From positions 1 through 56,678 of the IMG/VR virus record IMGVR_UViG_3300005830_000062: a DNA stretch of 56,678 nucleotides; one strand, given 5' to 3'. Shown piece by piece: positions 2,783 to 56,678 of this stretch. Below the pieces are notes generated by a model. It saw nothing but the letters and a program-made list of their open reading frames with translations, did no database searches and was not told the origin of the DNA. The translations under genes and the position numbers were made by a program. This DNA comes from a virus. Positions within the stretch are counted from its first letter, which is position 1. Every line of letters begins with the position of its first letter.

Positions 2783-4717
2783 CTACTCCTGAGGAGGAGG
2801 CTCCTGCTCAGGCAGCCAGTACACGGTGGGTTTATTTCTACCGCCTCCTTTCCTTGCCATTAGGATCTTGGCCCGGACAAGACGACCGGCTATCTCAACG
2901 AAGTCAGGACGGCGATATCCAGAAGCGGCAACGAGCTCAGGAGTGGTAGAGGGGCCGGCTCCAGCGATCAGATCGAGGATCAATTGCTCCTTGGTGCCTA
3001 CCTTGGTGTTCTCCTCGAACTCGACCTCATAGGTGTAGTTCTTTATCGTGTCGATATTGAACTTGAGCTTGAGGGCTCTGCCGGAAGGTGCCGCCTTGAA
3101 CTCCCTCTCAACGATGACCCGATCGATTCTTTCCTGGTCTTCCTCTATCACGGGCATTACATGCAGGGCACTTTCTAGCCACGCGTGGAAAGCGAAGCTC
3201 CCGTACATGTGTTGAGCGAATCTTTCTCCATCCTCGCTCTTGCCCTTGTTCCAATGGTGGACGATAGATACGGAGCATCCGAATTCCTCCCGCCACATCT
3301 TGACGGATTGAAGAACGGCACTGACTTCGTTCGCCTTATACTCATCGATCCCCTGTCCTAGCATGACAATCAGGGGATCGAGGATAACCATGACCGGGTT
3401 GATTTCTGCGATTAGCTTGCGAACCTGGGCTACTTTCTCTGGTGCGCCTAGGCTGAAGCTTTGTAGGTTGATAATGTGAAGAGGATAATCGGGATACTCA
3501 ATCTTCAGAAAATCTGATCTCTCTTCTGTAACTTTTGGAAGCATCCCTTTTGCTTTTGCGATCAGCCTGAGTCGTTCCTGTAGTACCGCTGCCGGATCCT
3601 CTTCCTGGACCAGAAGTACTGGACCGGGATTCCTAACGGGATACCGACCGAGGAAGGGAGCTCCAGATACGAGAGATAGGGCCAGATCTAACGCGATCCA
3701 AGTCTTGTAGGACTTAGATCGTCCCGATATAAATCCGACCGAAGAGTCTACCCAAGCCTCATCTATCAGCCACCTCAGATGAGTTGGGATCTGCATGAAG
3801 GCTCCCCATTCCTGGACCTTCATGTCCTCGATTTCTTCCAGCTGGGGGACTTCACGGGGTTTCTTTGCCCGTTCAGCGACGGCGGCAACAGCTGAAGAAA
3901 CCTGTTTCAGGAGCTGAGAGTGTTCGTCCCTTCGTCCAGCGAACTTATTCCAAGTACTTCGTTGGATGATATGAAGGACAATCTCGGGGCTTACGCCGAA
4001 GCGCACCAGGTCCCGCGTCAGCTTCTGTAGCTCGAGGCTTCTATCTCCATTTGGTTCTTGGAAAAGCCGTTTTCTAAAACCGACAGGTAACGCCGTGATC
4101 GCCATTTGGATCACCGGCTCGTCAATCTCAGTCCATTCCGAGCCATTCAACTCGGCTGGAGTTTCTCCGTTAACTGGAGGATAAGCGCCTTTTACTTCTT
4201 CGACAGAATAAGCGCGAGTTCTAGCCCATAGAAGCTTGACTTCCGGCGCTGACTCGTATTTGAAGTTATGCGTACCGGGAATGCGAAGAACCTGGGTGAG
4301 GTCCCATCCTCCTTTATCTCCACCATCCGCATAAGCAATTCTCTTTGATAAGGCTGCAGCGTCGTTAGGGTCGACTTCAGTAGTAAGGAACCAGAGTGCG
4401 TGATATCGTCCCGGCGAGCTTTCCCAGGCAACAGATGGTTTGAGCCGACACGAGTTCGGGTCGACGGGATCCAAGTCAGCCCACAGGACGTTCGTCGGGA
4501 GTGCATTCTCCTTCTTTCTATGAGGCTGTGAGAATACTACTGGACAGAAATACTGGTCTGCTCGCCCTTGCGGTTCTGGCAGTTGTGGCAGGGAACCCGT
4601 GTAAGGAATTCCAGGACGTTCATGCCACTTGTCCGGCTGTTCTTTGTACGGCAGAAAGACATAGCCATTCCTGTCACCCCAAACCGCGGCGAGCAGACGC
4701 TCAACGCGTCCCTCCAC
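2783..4717 (-). CDS. Bifunctional primase-polymerase / RepA-like (RecA-fold) helicase with a C-terminal wHTH.
   Basis: Prim-pol motifs LWADLD, SSPGRYHALW, RIPGTHNFK. P-loop GFISGRSKSYKTW. Walker B VMVILDPL. Confidence 0.8.
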   Translation of the reverse strand: MEGRVERLLAAVWGDRNGYVFLPYKEQPDKWHERPGIPYTGSLPQLPEPQGRADQYFCPVVFSQPHRKKENALPTNVLWADLDPVDPNSCRLKPSVAWESSPGRYHALWFLTTEVDPNDAAALSKRIAYADGGDKGGWDLTQVLRIPGTHNFKYESAPEVKLLWARTRAYSVEEVKGAYPPVNGETPAELNGSEWTEIDEPVIQMAITALPVGFRKRLFQEPNGDRSLELQKLTRDLVRFGVSPEIVLHIIQRSTWNKFAGRRDEHSQLLKQVSSAVAAVAERAKKPREVPQLEEIEDMKVQEWGAFMQIPTHLRWLIDEAWVDSSVGFISGRSKSYKTWIALDLALSLVSGAPFLGRYPVRNPGPVLLVQEEDPAAVLQERLRLIAKAKGMLPKVTEERSDFLKIEYPDYPLHIINLQSFSLGAPEKVAQVRKLIAEINPVMVILDPLIVMLGQGIDEYKANEVSAVLQSVKMWREEFGCSVSIVHHWNKGKSEDGERFAQHMYGSFAFHAWLESALHVMPVIEEDQERIDRVIVEREFKAAPSGRALKLKFNIDTIKNYTYEVEFEENTKVGTKEQLILDLIAGAGPSTTPELVAASGYRRPDFVEIAGRLVRAKILMARKGGGRNKPTVYWLPEQEPPPQE

Positions 4718-5797: not shown

Positions 5798-7229
5798 ACT
5801 GAAGTACACTTATAAGACTGAACCCTTCTCCCATCAAAAGAAGGCTCTTAAGAAGCTTTTCGAACTGGATGGGATCGGGGCTCTTCTTATGGAGATGGGT
5901 ACCGGAAAGACGAAGGTTGCGATTGATTGGGCGGGAATCGGCTTCTACAATTGGGGATTACGAAAAGTTCTTGTCGTCGCTCCTCTCTCGGTGCTCGGCG
6001 TGTGGCCGAGGCAGATCCGCCAACATTCGGGTGCTCCCGCACGGATCATACGGCTCGACGGTTCGAGTAGTAATCGAATACGGATGCTACAACGTATTCT
6101 GTTGGCGGAGGCATCTGGACCGAACGACGCTATCCGCTACCTTATCATTAACTACGAAGGAATATGGCGTGAAGACAATAACGGAGTTTCTATTGAAGAA
6201 CTCCTTAAGCGATGGCGACCGGATCTTGTTATCTTCGACGAGTCGCATAGGCTAAAGAGCCCGACTTCTAGGCAGAGTAAGTCGGCTTATCGAATCTCGA
6301 AGGAATCTAAACAGAGGTTGCTTCTTACCGGGACTCCAATCACAAAAGCCCCCCTGGATATCTTCGGTCAATTTAAATCGATGGATGATAGAATCTTCGG
6401 GACTAATTGGTTCTACTTCAAGAACCTCTATGGTGTGTGGGGCGGCTTTGGTCGGTATCAACTGAAGGGCTACCGCAACCTGAAAGAGCTGACGGCTAAG
6501 GTAAGAGCACACTCTTTCCGCATCAAGAAGGAACAGTGTCTAGATCTACCCCCTAAACTGTTCGAAACTGTCCCCGTGACACTTCCAGACAGTATTATGA
6601 AACTCTATAAGCAGATGGCAGAAGAGATGATCATCGAGATCGAGGAGACTCACGCCACAGCTGCCATCGTTTTGGTGAAGCTTCTCCGACTTTCTCAGAT
6701 TACTAACGGCTTCGTCAAGGATGTAGACGGAAATATCCGTATTTTGGATAGTTCCAAGTTGAATACCTGCCTAGATCTACTGGACGATCTTCTAGAAGAG
6801 GATCATAAGGTAGTTATTTTCGCAAGATTCAAATCAGATATGGAGAGAATCTCAGATCAACTAGATAAGCGTAAGGTAGATTACGTAATACTGTCCGGAA
6901 GTGTCCCCGGTAACAAACGGGACAGTTTAGTGGAGAGATTCCATCGTGATCCGAAGTTACGAGTATTCATCGCACAAATACAAGCGGGTTCGCTTGGCAT
7001 CGATCTCACTCCAGCCAGTGCCGCTATCTTTTACAGTTTGGACTACAATGCTGCGAACTACTGGCAAGCCCAGGATCGACTACACCGTCATGGTCAGAAT
7101 CGGAAAGTTACGTACTATCATCTCATCGCTCCCCGCACCATTGATCAGGTGGTTCTTTCCGTTTTGAAGGCTAAAGGGAACTTGGCTGAGGCTATTATCC
7201 ACAATCCGAGAAGGCTACTTGAAATCTGA
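5763..7229 (+). CDS. SNF2-family (SF2) DNA helicase/translocase.
   Basis: Motifs MEMGTGKT (I), FDESHRLK (II), LLLTGTPI (III), QAQDRLHRHGQ (VI). Confidence 0.85.
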   Translation: MISIPQVKPSTKLKYTYKTEPFSHQKKALKKLFELDGIGALLMEMGTGKTKVAIDWAGIGFYNWGLRKVLVVAPLSVLGVWPRQIRQHSGAPARIIRLDGSSSNRIRMLQRILLAEASGPNDAIRYLIINYEGIWREDNNGVSIEELLKRWRPDLVIFDESHRLKSPTSRQSKSAYRISKESKQRLLLTGTPITKAPLDIFGQFKSMDDRIFGTNWFYFKNLYGVWGGFGRYQLKGYRNLKELTAKVRAHSFRIKKEQCLDLPPKLFETVPVTLPDSIMKLYKQMAEEMIIEIEETHATAAIVLVKLLRLSQITNGFVKDVDGNIRILDSSKLNTCLDLLDDLLEEDHKVVIFARFKSDMERISDQLDKRKVDYVILSGSVPGNKRDSLVERFHRDPKLRVFIAQIQAGSLGIDLTPASAAIFYSLDYNAANYWQAQDRLHRHGQNRKVTYYHLIAPRTIDQVVLSVLKAKGNLAEAIIHNPRRLLEI

Positions 7230-15810: not shown

Positions 15811-15811
15811 T

Positions 15812-27853: not shown

Positions 27854-28435
27854 CTAACTCTCTCTAATCAAATCTTGAGCAGTAATCTCTTGATAAGAGA
27901 ACTCATTCCAAGCAAGCTCAGTCAAACCTTCTGCTGGGATGGAAGCTCCAATGTCACCTTCCATCTCTATAAGGGCTTTGGCTGTGTTTCTGAGTTCTCT
28001 GGCGGTGACTGAGGTGTCGAGGGTAACAGCTCCGAGACCTCCACCGCCCGCCAACGACTGGCGTTGGGCGACTTTGGATGCATCTGCTGCAATAGCAAGT
28101 AGCACCTTCGCCGCCGCGATTGTTGTATTGCCGCCTGCCGCATCGACAAAGTATTGAATCTCGGCATCACTGAATATGCTCCAATAGTAGGTGAAGTCTA
28201 CTTGAGCACTAGCTGCCGGAGTGACAGTGAAGGTCACTATCCCCTGATCTGCATCTAACGTCCAGTCAGTGTTGATTGCCCCACTGACTCTTACTTCCAG
28301 AGTGGGACTGGTGGAGATATTCCTATGACCTAGTTTGAAATACTTCTGAAGTCCATCACCTTTAGCAGTCTCTCTGGTGATCAGACTCTTATCTGAAGTA
28401 AGTAATCTGACAGCATCAATATCTCCAAGGGTCAT
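27854..28435 (-). CDS. Head-tail adaptor candidate.
   Basis: Position only. Confidence 0.35.
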   Translation of the reverse strand: MTLGDIDAVRLLTSDKSLITRETAKGDGLQKYFKLGHRNISTSPTLEVRVSGAINTDWTLDADQGIVTFTVTPAASAQVDFTYYWSIFSDAEIQYFVDAAGGNTTIAAAKVLLAIAADASKVAQRQSLAGGGGLGAVTLDTSVTARELRNTAKALIEMEGDIGASIPAEGLTELAWNEFSYQEITAQDLIRES

Positions 28436-30147
28436 GAGCTTTGCCCTTCGTTACGCTTGGGACTTCCCCAACTCTCTTGAATAGATGGGAATCCGCCATC
28501 CCTTGTACTTCCGAAGGTTGGCGAAGCATTCAACCAGTACCAGTTACCCCCAACCGCAACAAGAGGCTCGAAGACAATCCCCTGCTGAGTAATCAAGCCC
28601 ACAAGGATGATGGAGGCCTGAACCATCTCCGGTTCAAAAACTTGTCCCAGGTTCTCAATAAGCGGCGGCTGTGGACCGGCAATCAGGACGGTAGGGGCGA
28701 AAATCTGAGGTACCTGGGTAATCAGAGTCAGGGCGACTTGGGTATTGACGGAGGGGGCGAATAGTTGAACGCCGCTGGGAATCAACCCCAACTGAACTTG
28801 CTGTGCAATTATAGGATCGAAGGTGGTTCCTAGCTGTTGAATAAGAGTTGGCTGTATTGATCTGAGAATATTCGGGTCGAAGGTGACGCCCAGTTGCTGG
28901 ATCAAGCCTAATCCAAGAGGAGCATTGAGACTTGGTGCGAACACCTGGCCCAATTGACTGATCAGCTGTGGAGCGATAGCCCCAGCAACAATACTAGGTG
29001 TGAAGACCTGACCAGACTGATCTATCAGAGGTATTTGAACTTGCTGGAGAATATCTGGGGCGAAGAGCTGACCTAATTGTGAGATTAGAGCAGCCTGAAC
29101 TTGTTGATTAACCTGAGGGCTGAAGACAGTCCCCAACTGACTGATCAGCCCAAGTTGAACCTGTTGAGCCACAGATGGGGCGAATGGGGATCCAAGCTGT
29201 TGGATAAGATCTGGGGTAACAAACTGAGCTTGAAGAATAGTAGGATCGAAGACTACTCCCAAGTTAGTGATCTGACCCAGGTCTATAACATTGCCTGTAG
29301 ATGGAGCGAAGACCACCCCGAGCTGAGAAATAAGATCTGGAGTTACAAACTGGGCGCCGATGACCGTGGGTGTGAAAGTTATACCAAGTTGACTAATCAG
29401 GCCCAACTGGACCTGCTGATTGATTTGCGGCGCAAATACCGAGCCCAGTTGTGAGATTAATCCGAGTTGAACCTGTTGATTGATTTGCGGACTGAAGACG
29501 GTGCCAAGTTGAGTTACCAACCCCAATTGAATCTGTTGGTTGATTTGGGGACTGAAAACCAGACCTAAGTTAGAGATTAGGTCTGGTTTAAGTTGGCCTT
29601 GTAGAACCGTCGGCTCCAGGGCAATCCCGAGTTGCTGGATAAGAGCTGGATCCACCGCCTGGGGAACTAAGACGGTAGGATCAAAGGTTACTCCCAACTG
29701 GCTGATTAACCCAGGATCAACTTGCTGATTGATTTGGGGTGCGAATAGTGAACCGAGATTAGAAATCAGATCCGGATAAATGATCTGTGCCTGCAGAAGA
29801 CTTGGTTCTAAAGCAGTACCAAGTTGAGAGATGAGGCTCGGTAGAACTTGCTGGTTAACTTGGGGAGCGAAAGTAGTCCCTAGCTGGCTGATAAGATTAG
29901 GATATATGATCTGTGCCTGAAGTAAACTAGGTGTTAAAACAGAACCTAAATTAGAAATCAGTCCGGGATCTACTCGCTGATTGATTTGTGGGGCGAAGAT
30001 AGAGGGAGTCTGTGTGATTAGTCCAACATCAACTTGTTGATTGATTTGGGGAGCAAAAACTACACCAAGATTAGAAATGAGTCCCATCGGCCCCACAGTT
30101 TGTGGGCCTGGTGCTCCCCCACTCTGAAGTAGAGTTAGAAGAGTCAC
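28432..30147 (-). CDS. Tandem-repeat protein (571 aa) built of 25 units of 20-22 aa.
   Basis: Consensus unit LISQLGxVFAPQINQQVxLG, read 25 times in the track translation. The C-terminal ~45 aa are non-repetitive. Confidence 0.8.
   Translation of the reverse strand: MTLLTLLQSGGAPGPQTVGPMGLISNLGVVFAPQINQQVDVGLITQTPSIFAPQINQRVDPGLISNLGSVLTPSLLQAQIIYPNLISQLGTTFAPQVNQQVLPSLISQLGTALEPSLLQAQIIYPDLISNLGSLFAPQINQQVDPGLISQLGVTFDPTVLVPQAVDPALIQQLGIALEPTVLQGQLKPDLISNLGLVFSPQINQQIQLGLVTQLGTVFSPQINQQVQLGLISQLGSVFAPQINQQVQLGLISQLGITFTPTVIGAQFVTPDLISQLGVVFAPSTGNVIDLGQITNLGVVFDPTILQAQFVTPDLIQQLGSPFAPSVAQQVQLGLISQLGTVFSPQVNQQVQAALISQLGQLFAPDILQQVQIPLIDQSGQVFTPSIVAGAIAPQLISQLGQVFAPSLNAPLGLGLIQQLGVTFDPNILRSIQPTLIQQLGTTFDPIIAQQVQLGLIPSGVQLFAPSVNTQVALTLITQVPQIFAPTVLIAGPQPPLIENLGQVFEPEMVQASIILVGLITQQGIVFEPLVAVGGNWYWLNASPTFGSTRDGGFPSIQESWGSPKRNEGQSS
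28570..30087 (-). repeat. Diverged in-frame tandem repeat of 60-66 nt, about 25 copies.
   Basis: Recurrent ttgatttg(g/c)gg...gaa(g/a)ac blocks on the plus strand. The protein shows the matching periodicity. Confidence 0.8.
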
Positions 30148-48197: not shown

Positions 48198-48244
48198 CTT
48201 CTGGCCTCCTGTTCCTTGGGACTTCTGTCCCAACTTATGTACCC

Positions 48245-48274: not shown

Positions 48275-48308
48275 GGTGCCTCTTTCTAAGAGGAGTGCTA
48301 GAACTTAT

Positions 48309-48838: not shown

Positions 48839-48849
48839 CTAAACTCCTT

Positions 48850-49630: not shown

Positions 49631-49642
49631 TTCTTTCCTTCT

Positions 49643-49966: not shown

Positions 49967-50178
49967 CCGTGTGCCTTCCTATGAGCCCTGATCACCAGAG
50001 GTGCACATTCGCTTCCAACTCCATAGGCAATGGTAATTGGATCATCGTAGAAAGCTTCAAGAACTTTGTTCAGTTCCGGGCAGTCGGTTTCGTCGGAGGT
50101 GTCCGTGGGATCCTCTTCCCTTTCCTTGGCTGCCAAATCTGCCGCCCTTGCGACGGCTTTCCACCCAGTGAGGATCAT
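49960..50178 (-). CDS. Hypothetical protein (72 aa).
   Basis: Track ORF. RBS AGGAGGAGGAG. Lies downstream of the promoter at 50239-50268. Confidence 0.55.
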   Translation of the reverse strand: MILTGWKAVARAADLAAKEREEDPTDTSDETDCPELNKVLEAFYDDPITIAYGVGSECAPLVIRAHRKAHGC

Positions 50179-50238
50179 CTTCTTCTCCTCCTCCTAAATC
50201 TTCTTCCGGGCAATGGTCGTCCATTGTCCCGTCAATAT

Positions 50239-50268
50239 ATTATATAAGAACTAAGTTTGGTTTGTCAA
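50239..50268 (-). promoter_or_regulatory. Sigma70-type promoter, TTGACA-N18-TATAAT.
   Basis: Minus strand: TTGACAaaccaaacttagttcttaTATAAT. The TGA stop of the upstream gene lies inside the -35 hexamer. Confidence 0.65.
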
Positions 50269-50609
50269 TAGGCAAGTTTAAAATGATCCGATCCCAAAAT
50301 GTGGGCAGTAAACCAAGCTCTAGGAAGAGTTGTATCGTTCCCTTCTACATCAGGTGGACCAACCAGAACTACATTCCCGGCGATGTAGTCATGTTCGAAG
50401 ATGGCTTGGGAGATGTGCGCCAAGTAATCTGCCATCTCGTTCTTGATCAGCCCTTCCAACTTCCCCTGTTCGTTTAGGTACATCACGGCAGATCTATCTG
50501 GGAACATCACGGCTTCCAGATATCCCTCAACCGCATCTGAGATATCCTGGTAGTTTGGTAGTCCGGGATGGATCTCGATCGTAGCCTCTACTGAGATTTT
50601 AACCCACAT
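50265..50609 (-). CDS. Hypothetical protein (114 aa).
   Basis: Track ORF. Confidence 0.55.
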   Translation of the reverse strand: MWVKISVEATIEIHPGLPNYQDISDAVEGYLEAVMFPDRSAVMYLNEQGKLEGLIKNEMADYLAHISQAIFEHDYIAGNVVLVGPPDVEGNDTTLPRAWFTAHILGSDHFKLAY

Positions 50610-50976
50610 CTAGTTTCTCCTCCTCCCAAAGAAGTTCCCAACGATTTGATTTTGGTTTCCTAAGTTTACCACCGTAATGAAACTCTCTAACTACCCTTCC
50701 CCGACTTCGAAGTTCTTTTAGACGTTCATTCTTCATAGCCTCATCATAGAAAACTTCTCGCCTCTTCTCAATTTCTAGAAGCCGCCACTCATTACATGGG
50801 CACTCGGGAAAGAAGCAATTCCCAGAATGAGCTTCGTGTAGTCCAGATCGATGCTGGCATCTACACATTGGATCCACTACATTATGAACAGCTGATTGAA
50901 TGGAGGCTCCACAATAAGAACATTCCCCTCTCCAATGGATTGGAGAATGGTAGGGAACCTCAATCGTCTTCGTCAT
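50599..50976 (-). CDS. Cys/His-rich (Zn-binding-like) protein (125 aa).
   Basis: Track ORF trimmed to M14. Contains CSYCG...CRCQH...HSGNCFFPECPC. Confidence 0.5.
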   Translation of the reverse strand: MTKTIEVPYHSPIHWRGECSYCGASIQSAVHNVVDPMCRCQHRSGLHEAHSGNCFFPECPCNEWRLLEIEKRREVFYDEAMKNERLKELRSRGRVVREFHYGGKLRKPKSNRWELLWEEEKLDVG

Positions 50977-51460
50977 AGAACCGTGGCTCCTCATCGTCGA
51001 TGATTTCATCGGCATGTTCCATGTCGTACTTGTTCTCTAGGTACCAAACTGCCTCCGCGTCTTCATTCCAGTGTGAGTAGTCGGAAACTGGAGGGATATC
51101 ATCCCCTCTTCGCTTCGGCCTATCATGCAGTCTGATGCTATCATCCGGCATTAGATCCCCCGTCGTGGTTCCATCTGGAGTGATTACGGTAACTGGGCCG
51201 AAGTACTCGGTGTAGTATCCATCTGGGCGGGTCCACCACAGGAGGCTCCCATTTGGGAATGGAGGCGTCCGAGGGATCTCGTTCATCCATCTATTGAGCT
51301 TATCTCTCATGGTACTTTCATGAAGATCGGTATCCACCAGAACGAAGGATTGCTGCCATCCTGGCAACTGCCTGACTTCCCTGATCGCCACCATGTCACC
51401 CAACTTCTGATGGCAAATCTCGGAAATATCCTCGTTCCCCTTCACTACCAATTGATACAT
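50960..51460 (-). CDS. Hypothetical protein (166 aa).
   Basis: Track ORF. 1-nt overlap with the ruvB-like gene. Confidence 0.55.
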   Translation of the reverse strand: MYQLVVKGNEDISEICHQKLGDMVAIREVRQLPGWQQSFVLVDTDLHESTMRDKLNRWMNEIPRTPPFPNGSLLWWTRPDGYYTEYFGPVTVITPDGTTTGDLMPDDSIRLHDRPKRRGDDIPPVSDYSHWNEDAEAVWYLENKYDMEHADEIIDDEEPRFYDEDD

Positions 51461-52410
51461 CAGGTCCTCCGCATAGATCTAAAACTGTGAATATGTTCTC
51501 TGCCTGCTTCTGTGATTACCCTCCCATTCCTGATTCTTTCAATCAACCCCGAATACATGAGGTATGGCTCGACGGTGTTCTCCAGAGTTACATCCGCTTG
51601 ACGAAGCCTGGAGGCAATCGAGTCGATGCCGAGCGGTCCAGGCGCCTCCTCCAATACTCTAAGATATTGCCTGTCCAATGTTCTCAATCCTAGTCCATCT
51701 ACCCTGAGTTTCTTCCACAAGATGTTTTGGACGAAGGGCAGATCTGTGATGTCTGAATCGGTATAGAGTTTGAAATCCCTAATCCATTTCAGAAAGTTGT
51801 TCATGTACCTTGGCGTTCCCCGAGCCCGGACGGCGATTACTTCTAGGACTTCGATTGGAATGGAGAGCCCTAGTTTCTCTGAAGTTATTACCCCAATATC
51901 CGCCAATACATCTGGGTCATAGAATTGAAGTTCGAATTGGAGTTGGAACCTATCAATGAATGGTTGGGCGAGTTTTCCCAGATCTGTGGTGGCGCCAATC
52001 ACGGTCAATGGCGGCAATGGAGGCGTCGGAACTGAAACATTTCCGAACTTATAAAGTACTCGGTTGTCCTCCAAAACTGGGTATAGAACTTCTTGGGTTG
52101 GTTTTCTCAAGGCATGAATCTCGTCGATGAAGAAAGCCGTCTTTGGCTCTACCCTCATGATCTTCATGGCCAGTGCCTGAGGATTTCCGACGGTTGAGCC
52201 GATTAGGTCCTCCATCTTGTAGTTCATTTCCCTGGCAATGATCAAGGCTAGTGTTGTCTTCCCCAATCCTGGGGGTCCACTCAATAGAACATGAGCAAGC
52301 GGCTTATCCCTATGTTTTGCAGAGAAGATAGCCGCTGAAAGCTGTTCTTTGATTTGATCCTGTCCAAGGTATTCTTGGAGGCTTTTGGGTCTAAGGTTGT
52401 CAGCCTTCAT
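51460..52410 (-). CDS. ruvB: RuvB-like AAA+ Holliday-junction branch-migration ATPase.
   Basis: LRPKSLQEYLGQDQIKEQL, Walker A GPPGLGKTTLA, Walker B FFIDEIH, sensor RGTPRYMNN, C-terminal VEPYLMYSGLIERIRNGRVIT. Confidence 0.85.
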   Translation of the reverse strand: MKADNLRPKSLQEYLGQDQIKEQLSAAIFSAKHRDKPLAHVLLSGPPGLGKTTLALIIAREMNYKMEDLIGSTVGNPQALAMKIMRVEPKTAFFIDEIHALRKPTQEVLYPVLEDNRVLYKFGNVSVPTPPLPPLTVIGATTDLGKLAQPFIDRFQLQFELQFYDPDVLADIGVITSEKLGLSIPIEVLEVIAVRARGTPRYMNNFLKWIRDFKLYTDSDITDLPFVQNILWKKLRVDGLGLRTLDRQYLRVLEEAPGPLGIDSIASRLRQADVTLENTVEPYLMYSGLIERIRNGRVITEAGREHIHSFRSMRRT

Positions 52411-52418
52411 CCACCCTC

Positions 52419-52625
52419 CTACTTGAAACTAGCGTACCTCCTTGTGTAGCAGCAAGAATGACGGATCATGGAAGCGTGGGGGCATTCCAAGAAAGCTCTA
52501 GCCATCCATCTGCCACAAGTATCACACTGCCTTGTCGGGCTCTCAATCTGAATTGTAGGTTCGCAGTAGTGATCGAAGTGGCGACGAACCTCTTCCGCCA
52601 TATCGATGAGTTTTGCCACTACCAA
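52419..52625 (-). CDS. Cys-rich small protein (68 aa).
   Basis: Track ORF. Contains CDTCGRW...CPH...CC. Confidence 0.5.
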   Translation of the reverse strand: MVVAKLIDMAEEVRRHFDHYCEPTIQIESPTRQCDTCGRWMARAFLECPHASMIRHSCCYTRRYASFK

Positions 52626-52655
52626 CCTCCTGAGTCCGTGGGCTATCCTCGAAGA

Positions 52656-52904
52656 TCATCCCACCAACCATTCCTGAGCCCATTCCTGAAGTTCTTGGTG
52701 AACCTCTCCCGGGAACCCATCCCTGATATCATCCTCCAGATTTACCCAAGAGGCAATGGCTCCTCCGATTAGATCCATCAAGGCTTGGAGTTTCTTCCTC
52801 CCATCTTCTGTATCATCTGGCAGATCAGAACCCGGGCTGAAGGTGAACCCCAATACCTGCAGCCTCTCATTGGTTTCTGCCCTAGTGAGGTAGGGCCGTT
52901 CCAC
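52656..52904 (-). CDS. Hypothetical protein (82 aa).
   Basis: Track ORF. GTG after GGAAGGAGG. Lies downstream of the promoter at 52951-52980. Confidence 0.55.
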   Translation of the reverse strand: MERPYLTRAETNERLQVLGFTFSPGSDLPDDTEDGRKKLQALMDLIGGAIASWVNLEDDIRDGFPGEVHQELQEWAQEWLVG

Positions 52905-52950
52905 CTATGCCTCCTTCCGGCTTTGGACGGTCTGGTCCCGTCCCGACAAT

Positions 52951-52980
52951 ATTATATATTATAGAAGTTGGGTTTGTCAA
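52951..52980 (-). promoter_or_regulatory. Sigma70-type promoter, TTGACA-N18-TATAAT.
   Basis: Minus strand: TTGACAaacccaacttctataataTATAAT, followed by ATTGTCGGGACGGGACC. The upstream stop lies inside the -35 hexamer. Confidence 0.65.
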
Positions 52981-53249
52981 CTCAGGCTCAGGAATCGGTA
53001 CCCAACCGTAATCCGGTAGCTTCTGTAGTTGAATAGGATCTGATCGATCTTCAGAGTGAAGGGAACCTCATCCACAATCGTTCCACGATACATGGGAAGC
53101 TCATGCTTTGCCCAAACTAGGCGAGAGATTTGATCCTTGACGTACTTCCCATTTCGAGTAGCGTGATTGATGAAAAGCTCCTTGGCATCTTCGTCATCTA
53201 CTGTGAACTTTAGATCCTTTTCGATTGGAGGTGTTTCAAACGTCACCAT
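52977..53249 (-). CDS. Hypothetical protein (90 aa).
   Basis: Track ORF. Confidence 0.55.
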   Translation of the reverse strand: MVTFETPPIEKDLKFTVDDEDAKELFINHATRNGKYVKDQISRLVWAKHELPMYRGTIVDEVPFTLKIDQILFNYRSYRITVGYRFLSLS

Positions 53250-53412
53250 TGAGAATCCTCCCCAACTTTGACTGATTTAGGATCTCCCTAACGATCTCTC
53301 CTACAGACTTCTCAGAAAGCCTCGCCACCTCCGTCAGTTGCGATTTTAGAACTGGCGGTACCATCACCACAAGGGGTACCATTCTGCTTTCCTTCAGGGG
53401 TCTGCCCCTCAT
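53236..53412 (-). CDS. Ribbon-helix-helix (Arc/CopG-like) DNA-binding protein (58 aa). Not in the ORF track.
   Basis: My own translation: MRGRPLKESRMVPLVVMVPPVLKSQLTEVARLSEKSVGEIVREILNQSKLGRILNGDV. GGGAGG lies 6 nt upstream. Strand-helix-helix pattern. Confidence 0.55.
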   Translation of the reverse strand: MRGRPLKESRMVPLVVMVPPVLKSQLTEVARLSEKSVGEIVREILNQSKLGRILNGDV

Positions 53413-53479
53413 TCTTTTCCTCCCTCATCAACTCTTCCCTGAGTAGATCGTCCACATGGTAAGGTTAGAACCCAAGTCA

Positions 53480-53773
53480 TCAGATCGATTCCTCCCCTAC
53501 TAACCCATAGACCTGGATGAGGGCAGCATCGTGCCCAGAGAACTTCACGATGAAGTTATCCATGATCTTGTAATCCCCCTTCCAACTTCCGAACCTCTCC
53601 AGAATGAGGATCAACCTGTCTCCATCATCATTGACGATCCATTCTGGATTGAACCCCATCCCTTCCAAATGTTCATTTGCTCGAGCCATTCCATCTTCAC
53701 CCTCCTCCCTGAGAATGAAATGCTCGGCGATTTCCATAGCCAAAGCCATCTTTTCCAGATCTGAGATTGCCAT
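53480..53773 (-). CDS. Hypothetical acidic protein (97 aa). Start uncertain (the track gives 53890).
   Basis: The ATG at 53773 lies 1 nt after the upstream TGA. The longer version would overlap a Cys motif of the upstream gene by 115 nt. Confidence 0.45.
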   Translation of the reverse strand: MAISDLEKMALAMEIAEHFILREEGEDGMARANEHLEGMGFNPEWIVNDDGDRLILILERFGSWKGDYKIMDNFIVKFSGHDAALIQVYGLVGEESI

Positions 53774-53774
53774 G

Positions 53775-54074
53775 TCAGAAGCAGTGATCGCATGTGCAGT
53801 GAGGTCGACCTTCGAACTCGAGAGTTTCAAGGTTGAACCTTCTGGAGTTTGATCCGCAGTCCATACCTCCAACCAGTTTTGGAATCCCATCTAGGATCAC
53901 ATAAGATCGACCGTGGGGTACGATGTTGTGTAGATCGTGGCATGTAGGGCAGTTCCCCAGTTCTTCCTTCCGCTTTTCCTCGTAGATTTTGATGATCCTT
54001 GCATCCGTGGTTGACCATTGTCCCGTCAATATATTATATAAGAACGTGGGCTTTTCTTCCCAACTAGGCAGCAT
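53775..54074 (-). CDS. Zn-ribbon-like protein (99 aa).
   Basis: Track ORF 53775..54119 trimmed to the ATG 6 nt after GGAGGA. Contains CPTCH...HCTCDHC. Confidence 0.5.
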   Translation of the reverse strand: MLPSWEEKPTFLYNILTGQWSTTDARIIKIYEEKRKEELGNCPTCHDLHNIVPHGRSYVILDGIPKLVGGMDCGSNSRRFNLETLEFEGRPHCTCDHCF

Positions 54075-54222
54075 TGAACTTCCTCCGACAAGGGCAGTCG
54101 ATCGTCTCAGTTGATCCATCTCCGTTCTTTACCCGACAGCCTCCCTGATCATGCATCTCTTTCCGATGCCCACATCCAGGGCACCTATTGGCAAGTTTGT
54201 TGTAGTTAGTTGGGGTCCTCAA
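54064..54222 (-). CDS. Zn-ribbon protein (52 aa). Not in the ORF track.
   Basis: TTG 5 nt after AGGAGG. Translation: MRTPTNYNKLANRCPGCGHRKEMHDQGGCRVKNGDGSTETIDCPCRRKFNAA. Confidence 0.5.
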   Translation of the reverse strand: MRTPTNYNKLANRCPGCGHRKEMHDQGGCRVKNGDGSTETIDCPCRRKFNAA

Positions 54223-54231
54223 CTTATCCTC

Positions 54232-54546
54232 CTAGTTCACTGGGCAGATGCAATTGTGTAGAACGTTATGGCAGCCTCCGCACCAGCTATGTGTGATGTA
54301 TAGTTCTACCTCCTGGAGTTTGTTGATTTCTCGGCGGATCTTTTTAGCGGCTGAGTACTTTCCCAGTGCCTCCGCTTGGCATAGGGCGATCCTCAAAGCT
54401 GAAAGATCCTCCAAGTTCTCCTGGAGGCGCCGATTGTGATTGTTTGAAGGCTCGATCTTCTCTAAATCTAACCCTAGCTTTTTCCCTCCCGACTTCTTCT
54501 TCTGTCGGATGAAAGGATTTGGGGATCGAAAGCCTCCTGGCCTCAT
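54232..54546 (-). CDS. Basic protein with a C-terminal Cys cluster (104 aa).
   Basis: Track ORF. Contains WCGGCHNVLHNCICP. Confidence 0.55.
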   Translation of the reverse strand: MRPGGFRSPNPFIRQKKKSGGKKLGLDLEKIEPSNNHNRRLQENLEDLSALRIALCQAEALGKYSAAKKIRREINKLQEVELYITHSWCGGCHNVLHNCICPVN

Positions 54547-54547
54547 C

Positions 54548-54814
54548 TCATCCGTCCGTGGGATCGAAGCCTAGTTGTGCCACGATCTCTTGACGTAGTT
54601 TGACGGTGGCTCCCAATGTTCCTCCAATCATATCCCCGAGGCTGTCATCCCCAGGCTCTACTCCCTTCCCCTTGAGTTCTCTGAGTAGATCTGTTTCGTG
54701 GATGACGTAGACGGCAAGGGCATTGGTAAGTAGTTCCAGTTCCTCAGCCCCCACCTCCAGGTGGAATTTCCAGTTGTAGAATCCGCCTGAATCTTTCTCA
54801 GTGTAGATCTTCAT
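54548..54814 (-). CDS. Hypothetical protein (88 aa).
   Basis: Track ORF 54548..55039 trimmed to MKIYTEKD, because a promoter lies inside the long version. No clear SD. Confidence 0.4.
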   Translation of the reverse strand: MKIYTEKDSGGFYNWKFHLEVGAEELELLTNALAVYVIHETDLLRELKGKGVEPGDDSLGDMIGGTLGATVKLRQEIVAQLGFDPTDG

Positions 54815-54818
54815 TGGG

Positions 54819-54962
54819 CTAGCGGAGGGCTCGGAACTTGTCGGGAACGTTGACGATCCCTGGGCGAAGTGGAGTTTCAATCGGGAGGTGTCGATGTCCC
54901 TTGATCTGGCAACCTGGTTGGTGGCAAACCGGCCAGGTGGCTCGCTTCTTCCCCTTTTCCAT
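54819..54962 (-). CDS. Small protein (47 aa).
   Basis: Internal ATG of track ORF 54819..55052, after AGGAGG. First ORF downstream of the promoter at 55011-55039. Confidence 0.4.
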   Translation of the reverse strand: MEKGKKRATWPVCHQPGCQIKGHRHLPIETPLRPGIVNVPDKFRALR

Positions 54963-55010
54963 TTCCCTGTAGCCTCCTTCTTGGCTTGGTCCGTCCCTTT
55001 GGACAATATA

Positions 55011-55039
55011 ATAATATAATACCACGAAAATCCCGTCAA
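55011..55039 (-). promoter_or_regulatory. Sigma70-type promoter, TTGACG-N17-TATTAT.
   Basis: Minus strand: TTGACGggattttcgtggtattaTATTAT, then TATATTGTCCAAAGGGACGG. The upstream stop lies inside the -35 hexamer. Confidence 0.5.
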
Positions 55040-55263
55040 GGGGCTGTTTCAATCCGTTCCCAGGGTAGTTTCGAGCCCACGGACTCCGGATGTCGCCTAA
55101 ACTTGATCTTGAGAAAACCAGACATCCCCTCGTCGAAGTTTTTTTGAGCCCCGATTGGAACTTCTAGAGCGGGGGGAACCCGGGGGGATGTTTGGGAACC
55201 TTTGTCCGTGGGATCTTTAGATGCTGGGGATTTGACTATAAGAAAAAAATTCTCATCGGCCAA
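55036..55263 (-). CDS. Hypothetical protein (75 aa).
   Basis: Track ORF. Confidence 0.5.
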   Translation of the reverse strand: MADENFFLIVKSPASKDPTDKGSQTSPRVPPALEVPIGAQKNFDEGMSGFLKIKFRRHPESVGSKLPWERIETAP

Positions 55264-55272
55264 ATCAGCTCC

Positions 55273-55548
55273 TTAAGGAACTTTTTTCAGCACCTTCCAA
55301 CAAAGCGGGCAGACAAGTGCTTCAGAAAGAAATTCTCCGTCGAAGTTGCCCTTATGAAATGTGACAAGTTCGACTCTAACCACAGGGGAGCCTGGCGGGT
55401 GCTCTTCGCAATGGTTTACATAGATCGCGTTCTCTCCAAGCCATCTACTTTTATGGATAGGCCTGATCCGCTTCCTCCCACCAGCCGACGTTCTAATCGC
55501 CGAGATGGTATCGTGGTCGGAGTTTCTAACCCAGGCTTTGATCTTCAC
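55273..55548 (-). CDS. Basic small protein (91 aa) adjacent to the ACTGTC site array.
   Basis: Track ORF with a GTG start. Its RBS region overlaps the palindrome ACTGTCTCCAGACAGT. Confidence 0.5.
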   Translation of the reverse strand: MKIKAWVRNSDHDTISAIRTSAGGRKRIRPIHKSRWLGENAIYVNHCEEHPPGSPVVRVELVTFHKGNFDGEFLSEALVCPLCWKVLKKVP

Positions 55549-55553
55549 GCTTT

Positions 55554-55717
55554 ACTGTCTCCAGACAGTTAAATCTCCTGAGCAACGGACGGGACAATAT
55601 ACTGTCTTTGGGTAAGGCCCTATAAGGGGCCATTACCCAGACAGACAGTATATTGTCCGTTTCCGTCCGAAGCTTGAATATACTGTCCCTATACTGTCCC
55701 CCTGTGGTTTAGACAGT
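55554..55717. promoter_or_regulatory. Array of ACTGTC/GACAGT sites including a 67-nt near-perfect palindrome. Candidate operator cluster or replication origin.
   Basis: Sites at 55554-60, 55563-69, 55601-07, 55643-49, 55682-88, 55693-99 and 55711-17. 16-bp arms at 55592-55607 and 55643-55658. Confidence 0.6.
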
Positions 55718-55869
55718 TTATCGGCAGGTTTAGAATACATATACATCAGCTTTGAAGTAGATGTAGTTTCCCGGCGACCAGCCAATCTCAGGCAAATGGT
55801 CTAGTGACACGGGGGTCCCTATAGGGAGGCCACTGATGGTCATCACGCATCGACTAGATGGCCTCTAGA

Positions 55870-56007
55870 TTAGGGCCTGTGGCGCGGTGGTGGCCCGTCA
55901 AGTTCATCAGTTCTGGTGCCAAGAATATAACCGACGATGATAACCCCGAGGAATACCAGCATGAAGACTGTGAAGACCGCGAGAAGATAACATCCCATGA
56001 GTTTCAT
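55870..56007 (-). CDS. Small membrane protein (45 aa). Not in the ORF track.
   Basis: ATGA-coupled to the upstream ORF. Translation: MKLMGCYLLAVFTVFMLVFLGVIIVGYILGTRTDELDGPPPRHRP. Confidence 0.5.
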   Translation of the reverse strand: MKLMGCYLLAVFTVFMLVFLGVIIVGYILGTRTDELDGPPPRHRP

Positions 56008-56123
56008 TCCTTCTTTCCCGGACGGATTAGCTTTCCATTCTTCCGTTCATTTCTACAGACATAGCACATCTCAGAATCATGGTTCTTCGGTCTACCGCAG
56101 ATGGGGCACTGGTTCTTCGCCAT
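56004..56123 (-). CDS. Zn-ribbon peptide (39 aa). Not in the ORF track.
   Basis: AAGGAGG lies 5 nt before the ATG. Translation: MAKNQCPICGRPKNHDSEMCYVCRNERKNGKLIRPGKKE. Confidence 0.55.
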   Translation of the reverse strand: MAKNQCPICGRPKNHDSEMCYVCRNERKNGKLIRPGKKE

Positions 56124-56214
56124 TAGTTCCTCCTTATCAAGTTGATCGTCGGCCAAGAGAAATAGGCGTCCTCCTCAGCTGTGGCGAGGATTGACAGTCG
56201 AATGAGTATGCGTT

Positions 56215-56256
56215 CTAGAAGGGTCGCCTTCCCGCCTCGGTCCTCGGTTCACTCAT
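56215..56256 (-). pseudogene. 13-codon remnant of an MSEPRT-family gene at the high-GC/low-GC boundary.
   Basis: MSEPRTEAGRRPF-stop. Preceded by the same 37-nt junction sequence as the intact copy (36/37 identical). Confidence 0.5.
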
Positions 56257-56572
56257 GGTCGATCTCCTCGTGGTCGATCAGCGCATAGACCTCTTGGTGG
56301 GCGGCGTGGGCACGCAGAATGTCCCGATAGCCGCGACCAAGCGCCTCGGGGGACTCCTCGTCGTACTGCCACTCTCCGCATGAACAGAGCGCGGATGCGT
56401 GCCAGACATCGTTGGGGTGCGGGGGCATCAAGAGCCGATGCACCCCAGACAGCCGCTCCACGTCGAGGCGAGCGGCCTCGTCCTCGATGTCGAGGACGGC
56501 CCCAAAGAAGTCGTCATACTCGCTGATGGTTGCCAGCAGCCGCCTTCCCGCCTTGGTCCTCGGTTCACTCAT
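56249..56572 (-). CDS. Small hypothetical protein (107 aa, MSEPRTKAGRRLL...).
   Basis: Track ORF 56249..56599 trimmed to the ATG that overlaps the upstream stop (ATGAGTGA). Confidence 0.55.
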   Translation of the reverse strand: MSEPRTKAGRRLLATISEYDDFFGAVLDIEDEAARLDVERLSGVHRLLMPPHPNDVWHASALCSCGEWQYDEESPEALGRGYRDILRAHAAHQEVYALIDHEEIDHE

Positions 56573-56678
56573 GGTCGGCCTCGCGGGGTAGCGCGCCAAT
56601 CTCGTCGAGCGCCATCCGCAGACGGTCGAGGTTGACGGGCCAGCTATCGGTCCCGGCGTCGCTCACGATGTCCTGACA
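56566..56678. repeat. Terminal direct repeat, right copy (identical to 1..113).
   Basis: Exact 113-nt match with the window start. Confidence 0.95.

Follow-up and report, generated by a model that had tools for sequence, protein, structure and literature searches.

To our knowledge, experiments have defined the replication origins of few phages. Among those that fuse an AEP-type primase to a helicase, the sole origin proposal we know of is an analogy to an archaeal plasmid. One point of comparison is the IncQ plasmid RSF1010. Its oriV has RepC iterons, in three and a half direct copies of 20 bp, and beside them the inverted repeats ssiA and ssiB, which the RepB' primase and the RepA helicase use. 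Two 40-nt inverted repeats adjacent to the iterons serve as priming sites for RepB', and it binds the six nucleotides 5' to a hairpin (PMC8567376). Another is the pRN1 family of Sulfolobus plasmids. The pRN1 origin is a 100-bp stem-loop, variable in sequence but conserved in structure and flanks, and phage counterparts have been proposed (PMC4234260), among them one in Bordetella phage BIP-1.

Other systems share single elements with these. In iteron plasmids (P1 oriR-repA, pSC101, F, pPS10), repeated sites adjoin the gene for a winged-helix protein, and an inverted site overlaps the promoter or RBS of that gene, leading to autoregulation. In phage repressor/operator systems that act by looping, and in MarR operators, the regulator gene has palindromic sites on its promoter or RBS, with extra sites about 100-250 bp upstream. 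Integron attC sites bracket a variable, bulged stem with short inverted cores and work as folded single-stranded DNA.

Here we analyse a window of 56,678 nt from an uncultured phage (IMGVR_UViG_3300005830_000062) and compare it with related phage lineages, denoted by L-numbers (L009, L012 and so on). In the window, ACTGTC hexamers and their complement GACAGT cluster beside a long palindrome, within a module that recurs across the group (Table 1). Comparison of the sequences indicates that the hexamers are conserved, predicted recognition sites, located in a distal group, at the base of the palindrome and at the start of the next gene. The reading we prefer, and put forward tentatively, is that the module is a cis-acting replication-origin cassette, recognized as DNA and joined to an autoregulated gene for an origin-binding protein or regulator.

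Table 1. Positions in the window of the module, its parts and the genes discussed with it.
Feature	Coordinates	Strand	Remarks
Whole conserved non-coding module	55549..55882		Extends from the 91-aa start codon to the CCACAGG box, where the upstream ORF has its 3' end
Proximal 16-bp palindrome, ACTGTC-N4-GACAGT	55554..55569		ACTGTCTCCAGACAGT; overlaps the RBS of the 91-aa gene
Long palindrome	55581..55674		94 nt, about 37 bp
Distal '2+1' site group	55679..55720	+	TATACTGTCCC twice in an 11-nt register, then CCCTGTGG (55700-55707), then GACAGT (55712-55717)
AT-rich tract and GGGAAACTACAT box	55721..55772		Box on the minus strand, 55761-55772
Upstream boxes	55847..55882	-	CCATCTAGTCGATGC (55847-55861) and CCACAGG (55876-55882)
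Second motif group, in the SNF2 helicase gene	6887..6929	+	AATACTGTCC-GGA-AGTGTCC-N14-GACAGTTTA
91-aa basic Cys/His beta protein	55273..55548	-	Downstream partner; candidate cognate binder or regulated gene
104-aa basic protein	54232..54546	-	Helical hairpin and C-terminal Cys/His knuckle; alternative candidate binder
Primase-helicase	2783..4717	-	RepB'-type primase and RepA/AAA_25 helicase domains, fused; proposed to act on the palindrome

An earlier note on this DNA had listed a dense hexamer array with a 67-nt palindrome, and each of its elements was found again at the same coordinates. ACTGTC starts at positions 55554, 55601, 55682 and 55693 of the module, and GACAGT at 55564, 55644 and 55712. 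A genome-wide count of the motif, which the note had suggested, gave 30 occurrences against 25.7 expected, so that there is no excess over the window as a whole. Seven of the 30 are packed into 164 nt (Poisson probability 7e-12). The densest 164-nt window in 2000 simulated first-order Markov genomes held at most four, which bears out the cluster. TATACTGTCCC is present twice, at 55679-55700. The 9-mer TATACTGTC does occur four times in the module, as had been reported, with one more copy in the window at 20576.

The long palindrome proved larger than first described: the outer arms AGCAACGGACGG/CCGTCCGAAGCT stretch it to the extent given in Table 1. Its reported parts are real. Perfect 16-nt arms lie at 55592-55607 and 55643-55658, and a nested apical hairpin occupies 55609-55639 (pairing 55609-55620/55628-55639); ATATACTGTC/GACAGTATAT stand in the stem immediately inward of the outer arms. 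The description of the region as non-coding also stands. A 321-nt gap (55549-55869) separates two minus-strand ORFs, crossed solely by short overlapping ORFs that are probably spurious. The shorter palindrome, ACTGTCTCCAGACAGT, was correctly placed on an RBS: it contains GGAGA on the minus strand (55559-55563), 10-14 nt ahead of the GTG start (55548) of the 91-aa gene.

On the other side of the array, the AT-rich tract is moderate, about 70% AT over 30-45 nt. The enrichment is clear only in the window, L009 and L025, and the mean is 55-59% AT. The GGGAAACTACAT box is common to the window, L012, L029 and L032. The CCATCTAGTCGATGC and CCACAGG boxes mark the border with a variable upstream gene, and the module as a whole stands where a variable accessory block meets a conserved early one. 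A promoter scan found no minus-strand sigma-70 promoter inside the window's module, and inspection by eye found no conserved promoter in the AT-rich tract of any lineage. Nor did a scan find an intrinsic terminator in the module, whose stems are not consistently followed by a T-run; a canonical bidirectional terminator lies elsewhere in the window, at 47520-47561. Rfam 15 gave no match at E <= 1 on either strand of 54500-56678, and 55200-56200 has no DNA similarity to cultured phages. GC skew, which the earlier note had proposed to compute, was uninformative: it is governed by the direction of transcription and by compositional mosaicism (GC 37-66%), with no clear inflection at the module.

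The palindrome of the window has asymmetric bulges and a 6-nt loop, and it folds at -59.7 kcal/mol on each strand with 0-2 G-U pairs. All 11 of the lineage palindromes that were folded form 28-41 bp. Their fold energies are nearly equal between strands, and G-U pairs number 12 of about 409 on the sense strand and 10 of about 416 on the antisense strand. Against L009 and L025 (group A), 12 of the window's 37 pairs show compensatory changes; the stems of group B have no sequence similarity to one another. Across lineages the palindrome measures 70-110 nt, with one or two hairpins per genome, and its structure is kept while its sequence drifts. We considered a protelomerase tel site or hairpin telomere and rejected it, given the bulges, the 6-nt loop, the lack of a protelomerase in the scanned ORFs and contigs that run through the palindrome and circularise.

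The module lies at the same position in 16 further lineages, making 17 with the window, although their proteins are only 40-65% identical; for RuvB the figure is 49-66% and for the 104-aa protein 42-65%. Only distant relatives (25-41% identity) were found for PolA, capsid and primase-helicase, so a characterised model phage is lacking; a search of 185,579 GTDB reference genomes found no prophage or plasmid relatives. The order of boxes is the same in the 16 relatives, although the upstream gene differs among lineages. Each module comprises a distal hexamer group, the palindrome and often a site at the start of the next gene. The distal group usually has two hexamers in one orientation and one inverted. 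In L029, L010 and L053 the hexamer takes the variant form ACCGTC. Groups of three, about 10-11 or 20-21 nt apart, are found in L012, L010, L017, L022, L020, L025, L009 and L052, in either orientation relative to the genes. Distances from one site to the next fall into two clusters, 9-11 nt and 17-22 nt; no value of 12-16 nt occurs. Phasing of about 10 or 20 bp, together with the occurrence of both orientations, fits proteins lined up on one face of a duplex and not RNA.

Closer to the gene, arrangements differ. The spacing of inverted pairs is variable (4, 13-14, 25 or 37-51 nt). ACTGTC-N4-GACAGT is present in the window, L009 and L017, and covers the RBS in the first two; the remaining lineages have single sites or other spacings. 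A site falls on the RBS, start codon, +1, -10 or -35 in the window, L009, L020, L026, L031, L052 and L053: GACAGT lies at +1 or -10 in L026, L031 and L053, at -35 in L020 (TTGACAGT) and at the ATG in L052. Such placement in at least seven lineages fits autoregulation. The promoters of L012 and L017 carry no site. Group B has a TTGACA-N17-TATAAT promoter between hairpin and gene, for which the window offers no room. Three contigs end less than 1 kb from the module. The window and L009 both close as circles, with overlaps of 113 nt and 127 nt, so we take these ends to be assembly breakpoints and reject a genome terminus near the module.

A second group of motifs lies in the coding sequence of the SNF2 helicase gene. 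Its codons ATA CTG TCY GGA AGT GTY and GAC AGT are invariant in six lineages. Six of nine conserved degenerate codons are identical at this site, compared with 11 of 173 elsewhere in the gene, which indicates that the predicted site group is held by synonymous-site constraint. This copy, the Watson-Crick palindromes that are equal on the two strands, and the orientation independence of the distal group argue for recognition at the level of DNA rather than RNA.

Which protein would occupy the sites? The earlier note had inferred binding sites for a phage protein, acting as a switch or as part of an origin, and had named the 91-aa protein and a ribbon-helix-helix (RHH) ORF at 53236..53412 as candidates. 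Binding sites are favoured by the conservation of the motif in 17 lineages, its spacing at about 10 or 20 bp, its independence of orientation, palindromes built of Watson-Crick pairs only, and the constrained SNF2 copy. The RHH-like ORF does not hold up as their binder: its Pfam match is weak (E = 0.04) and homologues occur in only 2 of 11 relatives examined, which makes it an unlikely candidate. For the 91-aa protein the comparison cuts both ways. In 15 of the 17 lineages the module has its gene immediately downstream; against it, the window's protein lacks a winged helix, and L048 and L051 have the module without a gene of this family.

The 91-aa protein is indeed basic, with a net charge of about +6, and C47, H50, C80 and C83 are invariant in its family. 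Homologues in most relatives are about 200 aa long and add a MarR/IclR-type domain at the C terminus, a single winged helix that matches MarR_2 and HTH_IclR. Neither the 91-aa nor the 104-aa protein has a match in Pfam, PHROG or NCBIfam, and their AlphaFold models (pLDDT 73 and 78, respectively), of which the former is all-beta, have no significant PDB neighbours. Among the ten relatives with fetched DNA across the module region, L048 and L051 included, none lacks a homologue of the 104-aa protein; besides RuvB, it is the sole early-region protein tested that is present in all ten. The primase-helicase matches RepB_primase (E = 3e-9, 37 bits) and AAA_25 (E = 9e-31) in Pfam, and its single PDB sequence match is a weak one to RSF1010 RepA (1g8y, E = 0.005). 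In the window, L009/L047, L048 and L051 the module is found downstream of this gene and on its strand, at a distance of 3-5.5 kb (3.6 kb in the window). The cultured phage PMBT14 encodes a homologous primase-helicase, and no comparable palindrome lies within 9 kb of the PMBT14 gene. No RepC-like initiator was detected in the scanned ORFs, and no integrase, other recombinase, protelomerase or ParB in those of at least 90 aa.

Measured against the systems described at the outset, the module resembles IncQ oriV in that short repeated sites stand beside a large inverted repeat whose strands fold into near-identical hairpins, as possible counterparts of the ssi priming signals, and the phage has RepB'-type primase and RepA-type helicase domains, albeit weakly similar and here fused. 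It differs in that its sites are 6-9 bp long and of mixed orientation; direct, RepC-bound iterons of about 20-22 bp are not part of it. Moreover, the 94-bp palindrome folds as a single hairpin rather than as a pair of 40-nt ssi sites that each form a small hairpin, and the replicon is a tailed phage of 56.6 kb that encodes a PolA of its own. With pRN1 the window's module shares a stem-loop some 100 bp long that keeps its structure rather than its sequence and is set in conserved flanks, and both replicons encode a primase-helicase fusion. However, the pRN1 stem-loop lies only 54 bp downstream of the replicase gene, its helicase is of the SF3 type with a winged helix whereas that of the phage is RecA/RepA-like, and it has neither a phased hexamer array nor a site at the stem base.

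The likeness to iteron plasmids lies in repeated sites adjoining a gene whose product has a winged helix in most relatives, and in the site on its promoter, RBS or start, found in seven lineages including the window. Yet the phage protein is unrelated to Rep/WH1-WH2 initiators in Pfam and NCBIfam, the window's copy has no winged helix, hexamers take the place of 17-22-bp iterons, and iteron cassettes have no long palindrome. The module likewise recalls the operators of phage repressors and MarR proteins, but its half-site spacing varies, a palindrome separates the distal from the proximal sites, and a further group lies within a gene. It shares with attC the short inverted cores around a variable, bulged stem; unlike attC it comes with no integrase, is not part of a cassette array and has another core sequence.

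These comparisons leave rivals to the origin reading, of which purely transcriptional or translational control, though somewhat doubtful, is the strongest. ACTGTC would then mark operators of an autoregulated early or middle regulator, either the adjacent Cys/His protein or the 104-aa protein, with no role in replication; distal and proximal sites would loop over about 100 bp, and the palindrome would serve as an insulator or as a hairpin in RNA processing or stability. A gene for a small DNA-binding protein with its own sites ahead is the classical layout, and the placement of sites on the RBS (window, L009), the further 16-bp palindrome in L017, the GACAGT copies on promoters and starts, the MarR_2 and HTH_IclR matches, the linkage of module to gene and the position at the border of two gene blocks all agree with it. 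What control leaves unexplained is a spacer of 70-110 bp that in every lineage stays a Watson-Crick-only palindrome as its sequence drifts. The hairpin, which has no U-tract, is not a canonical terminator, whereas the phage does have one elsewhere. Several group B promoters (L012, L017) are siteless, constrained sites midway through the SNF2 coding sequence make no evident regulatory sense, the range of inverted-pair spacings is unsuited to one dimeric winged-helix protein, and the window's protein has no such fold.

An RNA leader is improbable. It would rely on alternating ACUGUC and GACAGU segments of the minus-strand transcript forming mutually exclusive hairpins (1:2, 4:5 and 6:7 versus 3:4 and 5:6) that gate the 91-aa RBS, or on the long duplex as an RNase III site like those of T7 early mRNA and the lambda N leader. 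The segments do alternate, a perfect alternative pairing exists (GACAGTATATT/AATATACTGTC, 55644-55654 and 55677-55687), the last hairpin encloses the Shine-Dalgarno sequence, and in the window, with no space for a promoter between hairpin and gene, the 91-aa mRNA must include the hairpin. In group B, however, the promoter downstream of the hairpin places the hairpin outside the leader, so one RNA role cannot suit both groups. Rfam gives no match, neither fold energy nor G-U content shows strand asymmetry, the site group is orientation-independent with spacing of about 10 or 20 bp, and the same motif is constrained in the SNF2 gene, which is transcribed from the opposite strand. We consider it very improbable that the hairpin is an attC-like or cruciform site of recombination or processing, folded as DNA and serving to exchange the variable upstream block, with cutting by Holliday-junction enzymes of the phage or a recombinase; other versions make it a packaging or partition site. 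Short inverted cores around a variable stem with asymmetric bulges do look like attC, upstream genes vary while conservation begins exactly at the CCACAGG box, and the phage encodes RuvB and an Hjc-like protein, its relatives endonuclease VII, an enzyme absent from the window itself. Against this, the ORFs scanned revealed none of the enzymes expected, each genome has one such site and no cassette array, the terminase genes are 11 kb distant, both complete contigs are circular with arbitrary overlaps and so give no sign of physical ends, and integrated or plasmid relatives are absent from the reference genomes.

How might an origin cassette work? A phage protein would sit on the phased ACTGTC sites, most likely the product of the adjacent gene, with its winged helix in most relatives, or alternatively the 104-aa protein. 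Unwinding or supercoiling nearby may then extrude the 94-bp palindrome into identical hairpins on the two strands, each with ACTGTC/GACAGT at its base. On both of them the RepB'/RepA-type primase-helicase could load and prime, bidirectionally, much as RepB' does at the inverted ssiA and ssiB sites and as is proposed for the pRN1 primase-helicase at its 100-bp stem-loop. Through the site on its RBS or promoter, the adjacent gene would be under feedback control of the kind seen in iteron plasmids, and the constrained SNF2 group might be an auxiliary site. Several observations run against the origin reading: the AT-rich tract is weak, GC skew has no inflection and the primase-helicase gene is not adjacent; the sites are 6-9 bp long in mixed orientation, a RepC-like initiator is missing and the RepB'/RepA matches are weak; the window's protein is without a winged helix, L048 and L051 are without the gene and PMBT14 is without the palindrome.

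A stronger claim, which we regard as unlikely, is that these tailed dsDNA phages initiate replication at an extruded hairpin origin in which one hexamer is read in two ways, as phased sites on the duplex and as the foot of a DNA hairpin of about 100 nt shown alike by both strands to the fused RepB'/RepA-type primase-helicase. Phages would then have their own equivalent of IncQ ssi priming and of the stem-loop origin of pRN1, and the site-specific partner would be a Cys/His beta-domain protein of a kind not described before.

The module offers a concrete test case for the proposal drawn from the archaeal plasmid: 17 lineages and three separable parts, namely phased sites, palindrome and proximal site. 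It comes with two candidate partner proteins outside known families, in a phage group represented by no cultured phage. Should the module be regulatory instead, it would still mark the border between variable accessory and conserved early genes, and it would connect DNA recognition with a small Cys/His domain that is new. In annotation, ACTGTC clusters with an adjoining long palindrome can serve as a lineage marker.

Several other candidates were tried and set aside. A polarity switch of the 7-mer CCACAGGG at the module looked striking as an origin marker in L009, L010 and L012, but in the complete window CCACAGGG follows mainly the coding strand (17:7) and the upstream flip is not sustained. 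Conservation of TAAACCACA, considered as a DnaA box, is limited to its CCACAGG part. An exact 16-mer search in IMG/VR returned seven single matches, a number compatible with chance, and these were discarded. The LexA SOS box of gamma- and beta-proteobacteria has the consensus CTGT-N8-ACAG; the corresponding spacings in the module are 6, 15, 17 and 39 nt, never 8, and this assignment was rejected. Half-sites similar to TACTGT/ACAGTA do occur in the module. Between the 91-aa and 104-aa genes, the window and L009 share a promoter only.

The hexamer ACTGTC or its complement GACAGT occurs seven times within 164 nt of the module (Poisson probability 7e-12). The earlier note had called this array dense, and rightly so: we read 55000-56678 directly and searched for the motif, and every element that the note had listed was present. 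The genome as a whole shows no excess of the hexamer (30 copies against 25.7 expected), and the densest 164-nt window in 2000 first-order Markov genomes held at most four copies, against seven in the module. The palindrome at the center of the array had been described as 67 nt long. Its perfect 16-nt arms and nested hairpin stand, but its length does not: once outer arms are counted, it is 94 nt with about 37 bp.

Features of the module and of the surrounding genome (positions in the window).
Feature	Position	Basis or remark
ACTGTC	55554, 55601, 55682, 55693	direct reading and motif search
GACAGT	55564, 55644, 55712	direct reading and motif search
Proximal palindrome ACTGTCTCCAGACAGT	55554-55569	direct reading and motif search
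TATACTGTCCC repeat, two copies	55679-55700	direct reading and motif search
Perfect 16-nt arms around nested hairpin	55592-55607 / 55643-55658	
Full palindrome	55581-55674	
CCACAGG-type word, module copies	55700-55707, 55876-55882	
ACGGGACAAT	50223, 54017, 55589	last copy in left arm of palindrome
Hexamer pairs in SNF2 helicase gene	6567/6588 and 6890/6921	pair 6890/6921 is AATACTGTCCGGAAGTGTCCCCGGTAACAAACGGGACAGTTTA
Near-consensus sigma-70 promoters, TTGACA-N17/18-TATAAT	-35 hexamers 2777, 5029, 47223, 48274, 50268, 52980, 55039	minus strand
Canonical bidirectional terminator	47520-47561	
High-GC island	56200-56678 and 1-1300	
Repeats in high-GC island	280-321, 56225-56266, 56541-56582	
Diverged 41-72-nt repeats	29078-30081	in 571-aa ORF 28432..30147
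tRNA-Leu(TAA) and tRNA-Ile(TAT)	15727-15887	side by side
991-aa ORF	33995-36970	

As assembled, the window represents a whole phage genome, circular and 56,565 bp long: bases 1-113 recur exactly as 56566-56678. With this 113-nt terminal overlap, the contig is either closed into a circle or terminally redundant; a related 56-kb contig has an overlap of 127 nt. Encoded are PolA fused to a UDG domain, a RepB_primase/AAA_25 primase-helicase, an SNF2 helicase, a PD-(D/E)XK nuclease, AAA_24 and DUF669 proteins, a near-canonical RuvB, an Hjc-like protein, and terminase and capsid. Among the ORFs scanned we found no integrase, repressor or phage RNA polymerase. The minus strand carries every gene from 16.5 kb to 56.6 kb and then on through 1-5.4 kb. 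The module gap is 321 nt within this long co-oriented block, directly upstream of a basic 91-aa ORF (55273..55548), and a promoter scan found no sigma-70 promoter inside the module.

Our search turned up no close cultured phage and no relatives among 185,579 reference genomes. With RuvB, a 104-aa early protein, PolA, the primase-helicase and the 91-aa family as anchors, we found 16 further lineages with the module in the same position (L009, L010, L012, L017, L020, L022, L025, L026, L029, L031, L032, L048, L051, L052, L053 and L054). Their proteins are 42-66% identical to those of the window, and intergenic DNA can be aligned only in the closest group (the window, L009 and L025). Every lineage has an ACTGTC/GACAGT cluster here, counting the variant ACCGTC/GACGGT, which makes up some copies and, in L029, all of them. 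Position 3 of the site thus tolerates, or co-evolves to, C. The variant is seen in L029 (2700-2800), L010 (5300) and L053 (994-1010); the perfect palindrome ATACCGT-N6-ACGGTAT in L029 is an example.

The lineages also share an order of elements. In gene orientation, the upstream gene closes with a CCACAGG(G) box; next come a CCATCT(A/G)...CGATG box, the box GGGAAACT, a tract mildly rich in AT, usually three hexamers that often enclose a second CCACAGGG, the long palindrome, in most lineages a TTGACA-N17-TATAAT promoter, and the downstream gene, whose start carries a site in at least seven lineages. The upstream gene varies between lineages: it is a 45-aa membrane-like ORF in the window and elsewhere encodes SLOG (L009), DUF3846 (L012), a C5-methyltransferase (L010) or endonuclease VII (L048, L053). 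The conserved early block therefore has the module as its constant left border. The more distant sub-lineage of L048 (14900-15130) and L051 (17440-17650) has two consecutive ACTGTC...GACAGT-flanked hairpins.

Does the module act as DNA or as RNA? Four results favor DNA. The first is spacing: of the gaps between neighboring strict sites up to 35 nt apart, eight measure 9-11 nt, twelve 17-22 nt, two 25 nt and one 31 nt, and none 12-16 nt. The clustering is suggestive of one or two helical turns, in bins picked after the data were seen. Next, the three-site group (two hexamers in the same orientation and one inverted) lies one way in L012, L010, L020 and L031 and is flipped in the window, L009, L025, L017 and L022. 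The palindromes speak in the same direction. An RNA element under selection on one strand is expected to tolerate G-U pairs on that strand only. Eleven palindromes of 69-109 nt fold into 28-41 bp each; G-U pairs are few (sense, 12 of about 409; antisense, 10 of about 416), and the two strands have almost identical fold energies. Stem sequences have wholly diverged between lineages, and compensatory double changes occur in 12 of 37 stem pairs within group A (the window, L009 and L025). Finally, one RNA role cannot serve the two architectures: the window's hairpin stops 33 nt short of the 91-aa start codon and so must belong to that gene's mRNA, whereas in the group B lineages a promoter sits between hairpin and downstream gene. 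An RNA leader or RNase III site, to which the first architecture would lend itself, is improbable; no U-tract follows the hairpin (terminator scan of the window; stems of relatives inspected) and the module region has no Rfam match. Taken together, the results make it quite probable that proteins bind this array at the DNA level and that the palindrome which it surrounds is functional.

Codon conservation indicates that the motif is recognized in trans at a second place, in the oppositely transcribed SNF2 gene. There AATACTGTCCGGAAGTGTCCCCGGTAACAAACGGGACAGTTTA repeats the layout of 55682-55717: two direct copies 10-11 nt apart and then an inverted one, 30-31 nt in total. The codons ATA CTG TCY GGA AGT GTY and GAC AGT are invariant in six lineages, and flanking synonymous sites vary freely. 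The gene as a whole has 182 conserved degenerate codons, of which only 17 are the same in every one of the six lineages; six of these 17 fall among the nine such codons of the 13-codon site stretch (binomial probability about 4e-5, rising to about 1e-3 once the number of windows to choose from is taken into account). A constrained copy on an opposite-strand gene argues against a purely local RNA-pairing explanation. An ACTGTC-N15-GACAGT pair (6567-6593) lies 323 nt upstream of the constrained site; its ACTGTC half has the same offset in lineages L036 and L039.

Two proteins are candidate partners. A profile search places a member of the 91-aa family immediately after the module in 15 of 17 lineages; it finds no such gene in L048 and L051, whose next conserved gene is the 104-aa homologue. 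The family is very small (9 clusters among 5.8 billion proteins), with an invariant C-x2-H...C-x2-C, and outside the window, L009 and L025 its members have about 200 aa and a C-terminal MarR_2/HTH_IclR-type winged helix. The 104-aa protein begins with a disordered, basic stretch and further comprises a helical hairpin and a Cys/His knuckle; together with RuvB, it alone among the early-region proteins tested has homologues in all ten relatives whose DNA covers the module. Structural models of both candidates have no significant PDB neighbor. An RHH-like ORF, proposed earlier as a possible binder, has homologues in only two relatives and is unlikely to play that part.

What would such an array do? 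Our preferred, still tentative, reading is a replication-origin cassette. Comparison at the sequence level establishes phased, orientation-independent, conserved sites, a Watson-Crick-only palindrome conserved in structure, sites at downstream gene starts and a second constrained group. We infer that a site-specific protein would occupy the phased sites, the palindrome would extrude, the primase-helicase would load and prime on the equivalent hairpins of both strands, and the proximal site would feed back on the adjacent gene. The reading is supported by two precedents. The iterons of RSF1010 are bound by RepC, and unwinding is the work of RepA; RepB' recognizes six nucleotides 5' of a hairpin and primes on a pair of inverted repeats, each 40 nt long (PMC8567376). 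The phage primase-helicase combines the same two domain types as RepB' and RepA, and RSF1010 RepA is the one PDB entry that it matches by sequence. The primase-helicase replicon pRN1 depends on a stem-loop of 100 bp that is conserved in structure and in its flanks but not in sequence; the authors of that study remarked on similar stem-loops in phages (PMC4234260). Against an origin, the AT-rich tract is weak, GC skew computed over the window is uninformative, the primase-helicase gene is 3.6 kb away from the module, hexamers stand in place of iterons, the scanned window ORFs include no RepC, L048 and L051 have no adjacent 91-aa-family gene, and PMBT14 has no such palindrome within 9 kb of its primase-helicase gene.

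A purely transcriptional operator region with looping, possible but somewhat less likely than the origin, accounts well for the gene linkage and for the promoter and RBS sites, but leaves the palindrome and the intragenic SNF2 site unexplained. That the module serves recombination, processing or packaging is very unlikely. Short-repeat arrays beside a palindrome are a known type of phage and plasmid cis-element. What is new is that phased hexamers occur together with a hairpin that has this hexamer at its foot and with a putative autoregulatory proximal site; new too are the conservation of the module across an uncultured lineage, the constrained intragenic copy, and two candidate partners outside any known family.

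Other words recur in this genome. CCACAGGG/CCCTGTGG is its most over-represented 8-mer (11 copies, about 1.4 expected), and the 7-mer CCACAGG has 26 copies against 6.7 expected. Because its flanks are not conserved, CCACAGG looks like a DNA-level signal. CCTGTGG is mostly on the coding strand (17:7), and both module copies point the opposite way; the word is frequent in lineages L010, L044 and L051 and rare in L037 and L049. The word may act like Chi or be a polar signal of another kind. CCACGGAC/GTCCGTGG has nine copies against 1.6 expected, mainly at 45574-55211, with seven of the nine in the early region at 45.5-55.2 kb. The sigma-70 promoters form a near-identical family, TTGACAAACC...TATAAT, several followed by GGAC-rich or ATTGTC/GACAAT/ACCGTC sequences; these and the copies of ACGGGACAAT, exactly three in the window, may be a wider regulated site set for the same factor.

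Composition is strongly mosaic, spanning 37% GC (18-22 kb) to 64% (46-47 kb). The high-GC island, at 66% in a genome of about 50% GC, holds three paralogous gene starts, MSEPRTKAGRR.... The repeats in the 571-aa ORF are diverged, lie in tandem or dispersed, and often keep a register of roughly 60 nt; their product is probably a repetitive tail or fiber protein. The two tRNA genes stand at the end of the plus-strand replication block, and the 991-aa ORF, among structural genes, has GT2 and GT4/GT1 glycosyltransferase, methyltransferase and TPR domains.
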